A program made the translations under genes and the position numbers. Shown here piece by piece: positions 21,808-34,148 of a DNA stretch of 39,487 nt. This DNA is from Bradymonadia bacterium (lineage in GTDB: Bacteria > Myxococcota_A > Bradymonadia > UBA7976 > UBA1532): positions 1-39,487 of the forward strand of contig JBNMOZ010000001.1 in NCBI GenBank assembly GCA_051276005.1. The letters are read 5' to 3'. Position 1 is the first letter of the stretch. Every line of letters begins with the position of its first letter. The notes beneath the pieces were generated by a model, which ran no database searches, was not told the origin of the DNA, and saw nothing but the letters and a program-made list of their open reading frames with translations.

Positions 21808-22013
21808 GATTCGATTGCCTCCTACACCGGGGCCAGCCACATGGCAGGCCGGGTCTTGACGGCCTAGCATCGCCGATTCGCGTACGTCAAGCCAAGGGGC
21901 TGAGAGGAGCGGGCGTAGGGTCGCGACAGATACTGCGCGATTTTGCATTGCCGAGCCATGGCTGTTGTTGGCATGCTACCGCGGCTCTTCGGGATCCGTC
22001 TAAACGAGGCAAC

Positions 22014-22637
22014 TTGGCCAAGCACCGCATCTTCCGGCATACCTCGGAGTCGCTCGCGACGCTCCTCGAGGACGGAGTCAAAGATGTCGTCGGGCGAAGC
22101 ATCTTGGTTGTCACCGGGCCGCCTCTGCGCGAAAAGTTCACGCGCATGCCGGCGCTCGGCGTCTATTTGTATCGGGTTGGCTTCCGCAAGAAGCTGCGTG
22201 AAGAGAGCGCGACCGAGTTTCACCGCATCGACGCGAAGGGCACGATCACCAAATGGCATCAGGATCCGTCGGTTCTGATGGACCTCGACTACTTGGTGAC
22301 TGCCTGGGCAGACGAGGATGCCGAGCAACAAGAACTGCTTGGTGCGGCGATGCGGGTTTTGCTGGCGAATCCGGTCATGGAAGGCGACAGTCTCGAAGGC
22401 GACGCCTTCGATCCTGACACTCGTATCCCGATTCGTCCGGTCGAAGAACTGTCTGTCGAGTTTCTCATGTCCCTCTGGCGCGGATTCGGGGAGCACCTCC
22501 GACCCGCCATGGGCTACACGTGCAGGGTTCGTTTGGAGTCGCCGCGCCGGACTGGCTTGGCGCGGCGGATCGATGACGCAAACGTTGGGGTCAAGTGGGC
22601 CCCAGACAAGCGACGCCCGGAAGAAGCGACGGGTTAA
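22014..22637 (+). CDS. DUF4255 (Pvc16/Afp16 N-terminal-like) protein, putative CIS tail terminator/cap
   Basis: LDLDYLVTAWADEDAEQQELLGAAMRVLLANPV, ...LSVEFLMSLWRGFGEHLRPAMGYTCRVRL matches the DUF4255 pattern (l.l.YLitaw.....e.e..lLg.vl..l...p.l .... lW.al.....psl.Y.v.v). TTG 22014 (GAGG 4 nt upstream) is preferred over the track ATG at 21948, because it leaves a 206-nt divergent intergenic region. The start is uncertain. Confidence 0.7.
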   Translation: MAKHRIFRHTSESLATLLEDGVKDVVGRSILVVTGPPLREKFTRMPALGVYLYRVGFRKKLREESATEFHRIDAKGTITKWHQDPSVLMDLDYLVTAWADEDAEQQELLGAAMRVLLANPVMEGDSLEGDAFDPDTRIPIRPVEELSVEFLMSLWRGFGEHLRPAMGYTCRVRLESPRRTGLARRIDDANVGVKWAPDKRRPEEATG

Positions 22638-22649
22638 AGAGGATGATGC

Positions 22650-23789
22650 ATGGCTGAGTACCTGTCCCCCGGTGTATATATTGAAGAGATCCCTGGGGCG
22701 AGCAAGCCCATTGAGGCGGTCGGCACCAGCACCGCAGGGTTCGTCGGTGAGAGCAAAAAGGGGCCTGTCAATCAGGCCGTCTTCTGCCCGAACTGGAGCA
22801 CGTTCACGAAGAACTTCGGCGACTTCGCCGATTCGGGCCACTTGGCCCACGCCGTCTACGGCTTCTTCAACAACGGCGGCGCGCGCTGCTTCGTGCTGAA
22901 TGTGGGCGTCGGCGAGGCGGACAACCGACCGACACGCTTCATCGGCGCCGACAAGGGCCCGGGCGAGCGTACTGGTCTGCATCTCTTCGAAGAGATCGAA
23001 GAGATCAAGCTCGTCATCGCGCCCGGTCAGACTGACCCTGCGATCCAGGACGCGGTCCTGACGCATTGCGAGAAGATGCGTTATCGCTTCGCCATTCTCG
23101 ACTCACCCGAGGTGATCGAGAGCGGCGGCGTCGACAAGCTGCCCAAGCCCCGCGACTCGAAGTACGGCGCCTACTACTTCCCCTGGATCAAGGTCTACGA
23201 CCCCATCGAGGGTGAGATCTTCGTGCCGCCATCCGGTCATATGGCGGGCATCTACGGGCGCAGCGATGCTGAGCGCGGCGTGCACAAGGCACCCGCGAAC
23301 GAGATCGTTCGTGGCGCGCTCGGCCTGCGCTACAACATCACCAAGGGCGAGCAGGACCTGCTCAACCCCAAGGGGATCAACTGCATCCGCGCGTTTAACA
23401 ACCGCGGTATTCGAGTGTGGGGCGCGCGCACCATCTCGAGCGACCCCGAGTGGCGCTACATCAACGTGCGACGCCTCTTCAACATGGTCGAAGAGTCCAT
23501 CGAGGGCGGCACCCAATGGGTCGTCTTCGAGCCCAACGACAGCAATTTGTGGAAGAAGGTCTCGCGTAATATCACCTCCTTCCTCTTGCGGGTGTGGGGC
23601 GATGGCGCGTTGTTCGGCGAGACGCCGGACGAGGCGTTCTACGTCAAATGCGACAGCGAGACGAACCCGCCCGAGGTCATCGACGCCGGCCAGCTCGTGG
23701 TGGAAATTGGAATGTGCCCCACCAAGCCTGCCGAATTTGTTATCTTCCGCATCGGGCAGATGCCGACCGGTGGCGACGTCTCCGAGTGA
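22650..23789 (+). CDS. Contractile tail sheath protein, small form (379 aa)
   Basis: N-terminal YLSPGVYIEE......I..VGTSTAGFVG. C-terminal YYFPWIKV.D......VPPSGHMAGIYGRSDAERGVHKAPAN, INCIR.F...GIRVWGARTISSDPEWRYINVRRLF. RBS AAGAGGA. Confidence 0.92.
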   Translation: MAEYLSPGVYIEEIPGASKPIEAVGTSTAGFVGESKKGPVNQAVFCPNWSTFTKNFGDFADSGHLAHAVYGFFNNGGARCFVLNVGVGEADNRPTRFIGADKGPGERTGLHLFEEIEEIKLVIAPGQTDPAIQDAVLTHCEKMRYRFAILDSPEVIESGGVDKLPKPRDSKYGAYYFPWIKVYDPIEGEIFVPPSGHMAGIYGRSDAERGVHKAPANEIVRGALGLRYNITKGEQDLLNPKGINCIRAFNNRGIRVWGARTISSDPEWRYINVRRLFNMVEESIEGGTQWVVFEPNDSNLWKKVSRNITSFLLRVWGDGALFGETPDEAFYVKCDSETNPPEVIDAGQLVVEIGMCPTKPAEFVIFRIGQMPTGGDVSE

Positions 23790-32416: not shown

Positions 32417-33048
32417 CCAAGCTGACCATCACGCCGCTCGACAAGAATAAGGCCGAGCTGACGACGGGCGCGCTTAAGGCGCTCTTTAATCCCAAGGAGT
32501 ATACGATCTCCAAGAGCGTACCGTGGAACCCGCAGGCGACCGCGGGCCTCGACGCGCCAGAGATGCAGTTCACCATGGGGCAGGGTGAGACGCTCAAGCT
32601 CGAGCTGTTCTTCGACACCTATGAAACCCGCAGCCCGGTGACAGCGCACACCGACAAGCTGCATAAAATGGCTCTGATTGATGCGGATTTGCATCGGCCT
32701 CCCATGGTCTTGCTCAGCTGGGGCAAGCTCAAGTTTCGCGGAGTGATCGAGTCGCTGACGCATCGCTTCACGATGTTTCTCGAGGATGGCACGCCCGTGC
32801 GGGCGACCTGCTCGGTCAACCTGCGTGAGGCCCGCGACGCGAGTGAGCAGGCCAAAGACACCAAGAAGGCCAGCCCCGACCACGCCAAGCTGCGTGCCGT
32901 TCGCCGGGGCGAGACGCTGCAGAGCATCGCGGCCGAAGAGTATGACGATCCCGGCGAATGGCGACGCATCGCCAACGCCAACAGCATCGATGATCCGTTC
33001 CGGCTCGAGCCCGGGATTCGGCTGATCGTGCCCCCGATTCTGAGCTAG
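32407..33048 (+). CDS. CIS tube-initiator-like protein with a C-terminal LysM domain (Afp7-like)
   Basis: The N-terminal LKALFNPKEYTISKSVPW............F.MGQGETLKLELFFDTY is the CIS tube-protein N-terminal pattern. C-terminal LysM: VRRGETLQSIAAEEYDDPGEWRRIANANSIDDPFRLEPGIRLIVP. Confidence 0.82.
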   Translation: MGLAKLTITPLDKNKAELTTGALKALFNPKEYTISKSVPWNPQATAGLDAPEMQFTMGQGETLKLELFFDTYETRSPVTAHTDKLHKMALIDADLHRPPMVLLSWGKLKFRGVIESLTHRFTMFLEDGTPVRATCSVNLREARDASEQAKDTKKASPDHAKLRAVRRGETLQSIAAEEYDDPGEWRRIANANSIDDPFRLEPGIRLIVPPILS

Positions 33049-33059
33049 CTGGGTGTTGC

Positions 33060-34148
33060 ATGGCTGACGATAAATGGGTCCCTGAATACAAAATCAAGGT
33101 CGACGGCAAGGAGATGCCGGCCGACGATCGAGCACATCTGCAGCAGATCCTGGTGGATCTGCGGCGGCAGTCGCCGGCCAGCGTGGAGTTGCAGTTCAAC
33201 AACCACGGGGGCGACTTCGATGAACGCGCAGAGTACGCGCCGGGCGCGGCGGTCGAGGTGGCCATGGGCTACACGATCAGCGGCACCGAGGTCGTCTTCA
33301 CCGGCGAGATCATCGGCAACCAGGTCAAGCTGGCCGAGAACGCGCCGCGGCTGTTCATCGTGCGTGCCTTCGATCACCTGCATCGCATGACGCGGGGGCG
33401 CAAGACGCGCACGTTTCTGGATACGAAGTTCAGCGACATCGTCACGACCGTGGCCGCGGACTCGAGCCTGAGCCCCGAGGTCGACGACACCGCCTTCGTG
33501 CGTGAGTACGTGATCCAGCACAACCAGACCGACTTTGACTTCGTGCGCGGCATCGCGGGCTGGCTCGACTTTGACCTGCATGTGCGTCATCGCGAGGGCG
33601 CGAACACGCTGCGTTTCAAGAAGCCTGACGTGACCGGCGAGGCCATCGTGACGGCCATTTATGAGAAGCCCAACGTCGAAGGCGATGAGGTGCATCTGCG
33701 CCGCTTCGATGGGCGGCTGTCTTTGGCGCGCGTGGTCAGCGAGGTGACGGTTCGTGGGTGGAACCCGGCCGAAAAGAAGGAGATCGTCGGCAAGAAGGCC
33801 GAACTCTACGGCGCGATGGGCGGAGAGTCACCCGCCACCGATGAGATCAGAGAGAAGTGGGGCGAGACCGACCGACAGATCGTCGACTACAAGGTCTTCA
33901 GCCAAGAAGAGGCCGACAAGATCGCCGAGACCAAGGTCAACGAGTACGCGCGCACCTTCATCAAGGCCGACATCGAGCTTCGCGGCCACGTCGAGCTGCA
34001 GCCGGGCACGATCCTCAAGGTCGAGCGGGTGGGCCCGCGGTTCGACGGCAAGTACTTCATCGAGCAGGTGACCCATCGCTTCATCTCGAAGGTCTTGCCG
34101 CGCAGTGGCTACACGTCGACCGTGCGCGCCGCGCGCTGCGACTGGTAG
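33060..34148 (+). CDS. Phage late control gene D (gpD) / VgrG N-terminal-like baseplate hub protein
   Basis: ...V.V.MGY......VFTGEI.......E......IVRAFD.LHRMTRGRKTRTF.D.K.SDIV..VA..S.L..EVD.T....EYV.Q.NQTDFDF....A....FDL.V and the C-terminal G.ILKVE.VG.RFDGKY.IEQVTH.F...GYTSTV are the Phage_GPD pattern. There is no gp5 OB-fold or beta-helix extension. Confidence 0.85.
   Translation: MADDKWVPEYKIKVDGKEMPADDRAHLQQILVDLRRQSPASVELQFNNHGGDFDERAEYAPGAAVEVAMGYTISGTEVVFTGEIIGNQVKLAENAPRLFIVRAFDHLHRMTRGRKTRTFLDTKFSDIVTTVAADSSLSPEVDDTAFVREYVIQHNQTDFDFVRGIAGWLDFDLHVRHREGANTLRFKKPDVTGEAIVTAIYEKPNVEGDEVHLRRFDGRLSLARVVSEVTVRGWNPAEKKEIVGKKAELYGAMGGESPATDEIREKWGETDRQIVDYKVFSQEEADKIAETKVNEYARTFIKADIELRGHVELQPGTILKVERVGPRFDGKYFIEQVTHRFISKVLPRSGYTSTVRAARCDW

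Follow-up and report, generated by a model that had tools for sequence, protein, structure and literature searches.

A contractile injection system tail operon that ends at the hub gene in a Bradymonadia bacterium, and a candidate baseplate operon at a separate locus

Organization of the tail operon

The stretch of DNA analysed here, called the window throughout, comprises 39,487 nucleotides (nt) of a Bradymonadia bacterium (assembly GCA_051276005.1, contig JBNMOZ010000001.1, positions 1 to 39,487) and has a G+C content (GC) of 66%. Between 21.9 and 34.1 kb it carries ten genes of a contractile injection system (CIS), all in one direction, and the subject of this work is this operon together with the question of where its baseplate wedge is encoded. 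A first-pass annotation, made from the letters of the window, had listed the ten genes in the order cap, sheath, tube, chaperone-like protein, small open reading frame (ORF) in the -1 frame, sheath, tube, giant protein, LysM initiator and gpD hub. Our profile searches against Pfam and NCBIfam bear out this order, and the overlaps it had claimed are real as well: the genes of tube 2 and of the giant protein of 1563 amino acids (aa) share 1 nt, and the latter overlaps the LysM gene by 10 nt.

The operon, which lies on the plus strand, opens with a Cis16/Afp16-like cap or tail terminator of the DUF4255 (Pvc16_N) family (22014-22637; Pfam PF14065, E 6.8e-24). Its ORF is open from a TTG at 21948, and the likely start, judged from the sequence, is the TTG at 22014, which is preceded by a GAGG ribosome-binding site. 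It is followed by sheath 1, a Cis2-like protein of 379 aa (22650-23789) that matches the Pfam families Phage_sheath_1 and Phage_sheath_1C as well as the solved sheath 8bky (E 1.5e-130), and by tube 1, a Cis1-like inner tube of the gp19 family (23839-24318, 159 aa; PF06841, E 6.7e-37). The position of P2 gpE is taken by a tail-assembly-chaperone-like protein of 123 aa with a CxxC at its end (24608-24979); it matches no Pfam or NCBIfam family, and it is kept in nearly all related CIS loci, at the same position and with 53-82% identity. A large ORF that had been listed at 24370-24852 overlaps this real chaperone ORF, has an Arg-rich composition and is an out-of-frame artefact. Next, at the position of P2 E', comes a DUF6760 segment (24982-25137; PF20546, E 1.2e-15, with a weak match to Phage_P2_GpE, E 0.013), which lies in the -1 frame with respect to the chaperone ORF. 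The operon is tightly packed and contains two untranslated gaps, one of 289 nt after tube 1 (24319-24607) and one of 134 nt after DUF6760 (25138-25271); the gap after tube 1 is also found in the relatives L003, L005 and L008, where it measures 105-229 nt.

The second part of the operon begins with sheath 2 (25272-27026, 584 aa), which is paralogous to sheath 1 and longer by an N-terminal or inserted region of about 200 aa; its Pfam sheath domains are located at residues 335-572. Tube 2 (27030-27725, 231 aa; PF06841, E 1.4e-31) is best matched by the Cis5 inner-tube adaptor, since its NCBIfam scores are E 6.5e-22 for CIS5_fam and 7e-9 for CIS1_fam, both under the curated cut-offs. Its C-terminal tail of about 80 aa (27480-27725) is of low complexity and rich in Pro, Ala and Gly. 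This tail varies among the Cis5-like tubes: in L008 (4307-5146) it consists of about 130 aa of Ala/Gln/Ser repeats, and the protein of L005 has no tail. The 1563-aa protein (27725-32416), rich in Ala, Arg, Pro and Ser, occupies the Cis14/P2 gpT position and matches no family in Pfam or NCBIfam. The same slot holds proteins of 1411-1549 aa in the relatives; their middle part is of low complexity, and only about 300 N-terminal and 110-170 C-terminal residues can be aligned with the protein of the window, with 33-44% identity. Judging by its position only, it would be the tape measure or ruler protein. Phage rulers follow a rule of about 1.5 Å per residue, and we speculate that a ruler of 1563 aa would give a length of more than 200 nm.

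The last two genes encode the tube initiator and the baseplate hub. The former, a Cis7/Afp7-like and P2 gpU-like protein (32407-33048), matches CIS_tube (E 6e-38) and Phage_P2_GpU (E 1e-6) and has a C-terminal LysM domain (E 1.3e-4). The latter is a gp27/P2 gpD-like protein of 362 aa (33060-34148; Phage_GPD, E 2e-15) that has no gp5 OB-fold or beta-helix part and no match to PF04717. It aligns only to the first 340-350 or so residues of VgrG-like chains of 581-643 aa (residues 13-352 in the case of the Cis8-like 9gtr_q), and in NCBIfam VgrG_rel it covers the profile positions 6-346 of 547.

Upstream, the region 21808-22013 separates the cap gene from a divergent, lipoprotein-like gene on the minus strand and, by its position only, is presumed to hold the promoter of the tail operon; no match came from a sigma-70 consensus scan of 21000-35500. 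Downstream, 124 nt (34149-34272) without any remnant of a baseplate gene separate gpD from the housekeeping genes rsmA (34273-35259) and tsaD (35139-36257), which are convergent to the operon on the minus strand, as the first-pass annotation had stated, and form the chromosomal end of the module (34273-36257; Pfam RrnaAD, E 6e-51, and TsaD, E 5.5e-91). A gene for a FadL-type porin comes next. The hairpin that had been seen after gpD did not hold up: folding of this region is no better than that of shuffled sequence (z = 0.25), and the scan found no terminator-like site there.

The window is a metagenome-derived contig, and a chimeric join at about 34.15 kb, which the first-pass annotation had named as a possible refutation, would have cut the locus there. 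We regard such an artefact as practically negligible. L006, a locus from a separate Logan assembly (run SRR28961217), is 100% identical to positions 29984-38238 of the window and spans the junction, and L007, which comes from another study and sample and has a gpD of 82% identity, shows the same order gpD-rsmA-tsaD-FadL. The junction is therefore genuine. The neighbours rsmA and tsaD are common to the window, L006 and L007, and in three further lineages gpD is likewise the last gene of the tail module, with different neighbours.

Genes that are absent from the window

In the main ORFs of the 39.5 kb, Pfam scans revealed no gp25, Baseplate_J, P2_I, gp5/PAAR or Afp15-like AAA+ protein, and a tblastn search of the window with the Zn-ribbon, gp25, Baseplate_J, P2_I and 523-aa proteins of its relatives gave no match. 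The earlier statement that wedge, spike, ATPase and payload are absent from this locus is thus borne out. The only AAA+ protein in the window is MoxR. It was considered as a CIS ATPase and dropped, as it belongs to a MoxR-DUF58-BatA-TPR operon that we take to be housekeeping. Canonical families of type VI secretion systems (TssB/TssC, TssJLM, ClpV) have no match in the window or in the partner locus L099 described below.

The search for the ATPase was extended to the relatives. No Afp15-like ATPase lies beside L099 or L014, or in the contiguous loci L005 and L008, nor was one, or a PAAR protein or a toxin, seen in four more distant relatives when the ten largest ORFs of the 7-9 kb preceding the cap gene were scanned; the proteins there include UvrA, MopE-repeat and NHL proteins. 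These four relatives stem from a metagenome scan with sheath 1 that returned only relatives of at most 75% identity, and they also fed the frameshift survey discussed below. No recognisable toxin was found at either module, effectors being often not recognisable by sequence; the genes that neighbour the relatives vary and include for example a PAE-family esterase and FHA proteins.

The absence of virion genes has a bearing on the nature of the system. In phage P2 the tail genes form two operons, FI-FII-E-E'-T-U-D and V-W-J-I-H-G, with the boundary after D. The genes of the window follow the order of the first of these, and the weak GpE match and the GpU match point in the same direction, so one may think of a defective P2-like prophage or an R-type tailocin in place of a CIS of the Afp/PVC/CIS-Sc superfamily. 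This we find barely credible. The DUF4255 cap and the CIS_tube/LysM initiator are CIS markers, and the similarities are graded accordingly: sheath 1 and the Baseplate_J protein of L099 match the Streptomyces CIS with E 1e-130 and 3e-74, respectively, as against 7e-21 for a pyocin sheath and 2e-11 for T4 gp18. Moreover, the same Pfam scans detected no capsid, terminase, integrase or lysis gene in the window, tail-fibre H/G genes are likewise missing from the 39 kb, and the flanking genes are housekeeping genes. The first-pass annotation had argued on similar grounds that this is no ordinary prophage, and that argument stands.

Contiguous and split relatives

For gpD, about 60 close homologues with 51-98% identity and a number of more distant ones were found, mostly on Myxococcota/Bradymonadia metagenome contigs. 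In one group of loci the ten tail genes are directly followed by five more, which encode a Zn-ribbon protein (about 180-220 aa), gp25, a Baseplate_J protein (about 1000 aa), a Tail_P2_I protein that carries a PASTA domain at its N-terminus, and a protein of roughly 520 aa with an N-terminus similar to the CIS13 family. This contiguous arrangement is found in L005 (Bradymonadia GCA_046290225), L008 (GCA_041389985), L009, L015-L022, L024-L026 and L029, and includes a dozen GTDB representatives. In other loci the tail module stops at gpD, with differing genes thereafter: rsmA in the window, L006 and L007, a CorA-like gene in L001-3 and a hydrolase gene in L095/96. ORFs of about 218 aa that follow gpD in L007 and L001 were considered as homologues of the Zn-ribbon gene and rejected, as neither is related to it or to the lineage of the other. 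The counterpart of these loci are stand-alone baseplate modules without an upstream gpD, namely L010/L012, L014, L099, L023, L071 and several more distant loci. They are preceded by unrelated genes, i.e. a Na/Ca exchanger and a Tad pilus in L010/L012 and a polytopic membrane protein in L014 and L099.

The split and contiguous arrangements were surveyed in 80 loci of GTDB genomes, collected with a chimeric query made of the gpD of the window and the C-terminus of Baseplate_J. The metagenome-assembled genome (MAG) GCA_018813065.1 has its tail module on JAHJCH010000078.1 and its baseplate module on JAHJCH010000247.1, which shows directly that both halves can live apart within one genome. The contiguous loci L015 and L008 are sister to the split L001/L010 pair, and the L096/L023 pair lies further out, so the locus was split at least three independent times, always between gpD and the Zn-ribbon gene; by the comparison with the contiguous sister lineages the ancestral locus was contiguous.

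A different arrangement was noticed in another sheath lineage with 64-66% identity (L119, positions 1190-2212 and 9183 onwards, L121 and L114), where a gpD-like gene is located about 7 kb upstream of the cap gene, not behind the LysM gene. The simple two-way split is thus not the only rearrangement among these CIS loci.

A candidate partner module

The wedge genes gp25, Baseplate_J and P2_I, none of which is in the window, form an intact operon on L099, a contig of 16 kb (SRR28961217_347956) from the same sequencing run as L006. The operon consists of the Zn-ribbon gene (771-1334), gp25 (Cis9, 1331-1732), Baseplate_J (Cis11, 1729-4728), P2_I/PASTA (Cis12, 4776-5678) and a gene for a Cis13-like protein of 528 aa (5685-7271). 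It is flanked by a membrane protein gene on one side and by convergent TPR and PEGA genes on the other, and L099 has no genes in common with the window. The only sigma-70-like match in 7 kb, TCGACC-16-TATACT, lies 20 nt before the start of the Zn-ribbon gene and weakly suggests that the second operon is functional.

Several observations connect L099 to the window. Its tetranucleotide correlation with the window (r = 0.990) is the highest of about 110 loci, followed by that of L014 (0.988). The neighbour-joining tree of gpD has the form ((window, L007), (L001, L015)) and that of Baseplate_J the form ((L099, L014), (L010, (L015, L008))); the two trees are congruent, and L099 occupies the place where the absent half of the window is expected. 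In addition, the gpD sequence of the window is present in NCBI, JGI and Logan, and the same three sources contain P0227, a protein of the Baseplate_J cluster of L014 that lies on L099 and that NCBI assigns to a Bradymonadia MAG (MGK0362282.1).

Both modules have the marks of functional genes. All ten tail genes are of full length, with no internal stops. The ratio of nonsynonymous to synonymous substitution rates (dN/dS) between the window and L007 is 0.15 for gpD and 0.14 for the LysM initiator, similar to the controls tsaD (0.09) and rsmA (0.12), and between L099 and L014 it amounts to 0.06 for Baseplate_J, 0.03 for gp25, 0.08 for P2_I, 0.10 for the 528-aa protein and 0.08 for the Zn-ribbon protein. 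Both halves are under purifying selection, with dN/dS values of 0.03-0.15.

These values speak against the idea that the window holds a degraded remnant, in which the baseplate half was lost and the ten genes left behind are decaying or no longer expressed. Such a decayed locus had been among the alternatives of the first-pass annotation, which had reasoned that baseplate genes following gpD in orthologous loci, together with their absence from the whole of this genome, would speak for it. Close relatives do have baseplate genes directly after gpD, and the window has none. Against decay, the genes are intact and their dN/dS values low; furthermore, the same truncated layout, flanks included, is retained in a relative with 82% gpD identity, and an intact stand-alone baseplate operon exists in the same run. 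We therefore reject decay, and give the remnant explanation a very small probability.

A probable two-operon injection system

In our opinion it is highly probable that the window at 22.0-34.1 kb contains the tail operon of a two-operon CIS, the wedge genes of which lie in a second operon at another chromosomal site and are seen in our data as L099. We favour this split-locus explanation, which had been put forward before by analogy with P2, because a stand-alone five-gene operon occurs in the same run, its composition matches that of the window, the trees are congruent, split and contiguous relatives alternate, and one MAG carries both halves apart; the cut, too, is exactly at the P2 boundary.

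A self-sufficient, non-canonical machine that works without the gp25/J/I wedge, e.g. a hub-nucleated sheath-tube, is unlikely to be the answer, and is so to a marked degree. According to this explanation L099 would belong to another organism or system, and it is true that its assignment to the same genome is indirect and that the clade is already non-canonical in other respects, since its hub lacks a gp5 part and it has neither a PAAR nor an adjacent ATPase. On the other hand, each stand-alone baseplate module needs a tail module and vice versa, the contiguous relatives show that both gene sets belong together, the gpD and Baseplate_J trees are congruent with matching composition, and in solved CIS the gp25-like protein binds the first sheath ring (PMC12237407). 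A non-canonical baseplate, also an earlier suggestion, is not needed to account for the wedge, given the L099 operon.

There are points that weigh against the two-operon explanation and these need to be discussed. The pairing of L099 with the window is based on the shared run, sources, composition and phylogeny, and not on a shared assembly accession. A chimeric gpD plus Baseplate_J query on GTDB-representative genomes returned Baseplate_J matches only, the window's own genome not being among those scanned. Even with both modules taken together, the part list is still incomplete by the standard of extracellular CIS (eCIS): the spike (gp5/gpV), PAAR, Afp15-like ATPase and effector were not found at either module or in the contiguous relatives, and the predicted fold of the Zn-ribbon protein, which fills the gpV slot, is not that of a spike.

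If the two operons do cooperate, assembly could proceed as follows. By analogy with solved CIS (PMC12237407) and with P2 biology, the hub, the Cis7 initiator and the ruler protein would nucleate assembly, and the wedges Cis9, Cis11 and Cis12, made in trans from the second operon, would close the baseplate. The Cis5-like adaptor and then the tube would polymerise, enclosed by the sheath, up to a length set by the ruler protein, until the DUF4255 cap ends growth. The split would be tolerated because the cut lies at the natural boundary of two transcription units, equivalent to ...T-U-D / V-W-J-I-H in P2. Several lineages of Myxococcota were cut at this boundary independently of one another. As to the mode of action, the system could be a particle that is released for predation, or it could work in the cytoplasm or at the membrane as its nearest solved relatives do.

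The chaperone/DUF6760 junction

A candidate -1 frameshift site, G_GGG_GAA, is located on the plus strand at 24967-24973, two codons ahead of the chaperone stop. The chaperone ends with ...GTG GGG GAA TCG TAA, and the DUF6760 frame reads ...GGG GGA ATC GTA AGC TAC CCT..., i.e. GGIVSYPLER. In the window the nearest start codon of the DUF6760 frame is 18 codons upstream of the domain, well within the chaperone ORF, and the listed start of the ORF, GTG 24919, is 21 codons upstream. In 21 of 62 related loci the DUF6760 frame has no start codon whatsoever from its upstream stop to the domain itself; duplicate contigs were still included in this count. A run of at least five G is present at the junction in 49 of 58 CIS loci, and has the same register in 46 of those. 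This G-run (G5-7) is kept down to about 46% sheath identity and across phyla; the junctions compared include those of L005, L095, L105, L106 and L153, of which L153 carries GGGAAAA. GGG makes up only 19% of the Gly codons of the window.

Because the G-run is conserved, DUF6760 lies in the -1 frame and many loci have no start codon for it, a programmed -1 shift probably yields a chaperone-DUF6760 fusion of about 170 aa. The comparison suggests that such a fusion is made by CIS of many phyla. Lambda G/GT and P2 E/E' are precedents for -1 frameshifting in tail genes; as in the window, P2 has a chaperone with a -1 frame extension, although its slip site is T_TTT_TTG and that of the window is a G-run. 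A literature search for DUF6760 found no paper. If the frameshift is real, changing GGGGGAA to GGCGGTGAA should abolish the fusion product of about 170 aa.

One locus calls for separate mention. The baseplate genes of L009 (GCA_041390005.1, JAWKQU010000054.1) are nearly identical to those of L008, and its sheath, LysM, gpD, P2_I and 523-aa-protein genes are each in pieces. It has G4 instead of G5 at the chaperone junction, which results in an annotated chaperone-DUF6760 fusion of 174 aa. These features look like homopolymer or indel sequencing errors, not biology.

The Zn-ribbon protein and the question of the spike

The Zn-ribbon gene (L099 771-1334; L008 11175-11714; L005 11134-11790) is always situated between gpD and gp25, i.e. 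in the P2 gpV/gp5-ORF slot, and the stand-alone baseplate operons begin with it. Its product has two repeats of a module composed of a helix and a C4 Zn ribbon (hxxWxxxxxxxxNGRxxGxxCPxC...RCxxCxxGFEGRxG), with a Pro/Ala-rich linker between them. Shorter Zn-ribbon matches were seen in the same slot in more distant Myxococcales loci. In the eCIS subtypes IIa-c the gene after gp27 is gp5, as an ORF of its own (Chen et al., PMC6899500); here this slot is taken by the Zn-ribbon gene. An AlphaFold2 model of the protein (predicted local distance difference test score, pLDDT, 78) contains two helix-plus-Zn-ribbon modules and a disordered linker. In a Foldseek search against the PDB it had no match at E < 0.001, and only Elf1-like or ribosomal Zn ribbons above that value. 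The idea that it is a cryptic spike or PAAR protein was dropped, as the predicted fold resembles neither.

Peptidoglycan-associated domains occur on two baseplate parts, PASTA on Cis12/P2_I (L099 4776-5678) and LysM on Cis7 (window 32407-33048). Their presence hints that the baseplate may contact the cell wall.

A further thought, tentative and on balance doubtful, is that the two-sheath Bradymonadia/Myxococcota clade represents a CIS variant that works without a gp5/gpV-type spike, a PAAR tip and a dedicated Afp15-like ATPase. Should this be true, the clade-specific tandem Zn-ribbon protein would act structurally or as a regulator at the hub, and LysM (Cis7) and PASTA (Cis12) would point to peptidoglycan as the target of the baseplate. 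The variant would also include a chaperone-DUF6760 protein, made by -1 frameshifting at a G-run and conserved over many phyla, of which we found no description. Finally, the repeated clean split would show that tail and baseplate are independent modules that assemble in trans and could be used in engineering.

Base composition and other genes of the window

The 5' part of the operon had been described as AT-richer than its surroundings, and the dip is real, as GC is 0.60-0.61 at 22-25 kb and 0.65-0.70 elsewhere. The accompanying suggestion of foreign origin or high expression has found little support: the dip lies in codon positions 1 and 2, and it gives no sign of a recent foreign origin, since GC at the third codon position (GC3) is near the host value. 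Most CIS genes have a GC3 of 0.79-0.87, as compared to 0.75-0.90 in the flanks, and the values of sheath 1, the chaperone, the LysM gene and gpD (0.81-0.87) are like those of the flanking housekeeping genes. The dip reflects amino-acid composition.

Upstream of the tail operon there are the lipoprotein-like gene, an RluA-type synthase gene and the MoxR-DUF58-BatA-TPR operon. At 8898-10867, on the minus strand, we noticed a long sigma factor of the extracytoplasmic function type (461 aa), which has sigma-70 regions 2 and 4 in its C-terminal half. A zf-HC2 anti-sigma-like gene follows directly downstream on the same strand, and the pair diverges from a DUF4175-MoxR-BatA operon. Near the beginning of the window (1200-3134), a FliO-like gene (1200-1598), FliP (1595-2266) and a FliR/Bac_export_1-like ORF (2220-3134) are clustered. 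They are succeeded by NUDIX, Zn-protease and RimK genes, and the next 35 kb contain no other flagellar or type III secretion genes. The three may constitute an orphan cluster of export-gate genes.

Relation to systems already described

Among solved systems the CIS of Streptomyces coelicolor (CIS-Sc) is the nearest, as judged from the sheath (8bky, E 1.5e-130) and from the match of the L099 Baseplate_J protein to Cis11 (9gtp, E 3e-74). A sheath chain of 574 aa, 9ezm, which we take to be the sheath of a haloarchaeal CIS, is also a strong match (E 2.6e-129). The Afp/PVC sheaths follow at E 1e-46 to 1e-55, Pvc2 giving 3e-55. CIS-Sc is a cytoplasmic system (Casu et al. 2023, PMC10066040), and the haloarchaeal CIS works at the membrane (PMC11566945). 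The first-pass annotation had spoken of a contractile-injection or tailocin-like operon; the CIS part of this label is upheld by the matches of sheath, tube, cap, LysM initiator and hub, and the extracellular or tailocin-like part is not established, because the nearest solved relatives are cytoplasmic or membrane-bound.

It is instructive to compare the general features of the two modules with CIS-Sc. Cis16, Cis2, Cis1, Cis1b/5, Cis7, Cis8, Cis9, Cis11 and Cis12 form a common core, and both systems have two tube-family proteins and no conventional fibre (PDB 8BKY, 9GTP, 9GTR). There are several differences. Firstly, CIS-Sc is encoded in one contiguous cluster, while the genes discussed here are probably split. 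Secondly, with 643 aa the Cis8 of CIS-Sc makes up a complete VgrG-like spike, while our hub of 362 aa has the gp27-like part only. Thirdly, CIS-Sc has one sheath and no tape measure, as opposed to two sheaths and a ruler-like protein of 1563 aa. The tandem Zn-ribbon protein, the PASTA domain on Cis12 and the Cis13-like protein go beyond CIS-Sc, and the host is a Gram-negative bacterium of a predatory class, unlike that of CIS-Sc.

Afp and PVC resemble the present system in having several sheath paralogues, a tape measure, a cap and a LysM initiator, but they are contiguous and carry a VgrG spike, PAAR, fibres, the Afp15 ATPase and toxins, none of which was found at either module. Closer in terms of taxonomy are uncultured Myxococcota MAGs with eCIS-like sheath/tube clusters that lack other phage genes, for which a role in predation was proposed in a study that also lists Bradymonadia among the predatory Myxococcota (ISME Commun 2025, PMC11937823). 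By their description these clusters are from the same phylum; they were likened to Afp/PVC, with a tube closest to AlgoCIS/PVC, and split loci are not discussed there. Because NCBI places partner-module proteins in a Bradymonadia MAG and Bradymonadia are listed as predatory (PMC11937823), the system is a candidate predation weapon; it is only a candidate, as its nearest solved relatives act inside the producer cell.

Split loci are not new. Chen et al. (2019, dbeCIS, PMC6899500) reported split eCIS loci in 13 genomes and in the T6SS-iv (type VI secretion system, subtype iv) of Amoebophilus asiaticus, with cases in both eCIS lineages, and the CIS of Halogeometricum consists of two subclusters 8.7 kb apart (PMC11566945). 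The split CIS arrangement being already known, the main puzzle of the window most likely has an ordinary answer. In those examples, as probably here, core CIS genes reside at two genomic places, but they are single genomes; in the present clade the gpD/Zn-ribbon-gp25 boundary was cut at least three times, and sister lineages allow the event to be dated. In practical terms, genome mining that insists on contiguity of the core genes will overlook or wrongly score such systems in Myxococcota/Bradymonadia MAGs.

The closest parallel in gene order is phage P2. Both halves have the same order as in P2, the tail operon corresponding to FI-FII-E-E'-T-U-D and the second operon to (V-slot)-W-J-I-(H-slot), with family matches to GpU, GPD, gp25 (W), Baseplate_J (J) and Tail_P2_I (I). 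Unlike P2, the system has no head, terminase or lysis genes, it possesses a DUF4255 cap, a LysM domain, a second sheath and a second tube, and its gpV slot is taken by the Zn-ribbon protein. The recurrent cut at the P2-type boundary is evidence from natural loci that the modules of tail and wedge can be separated.

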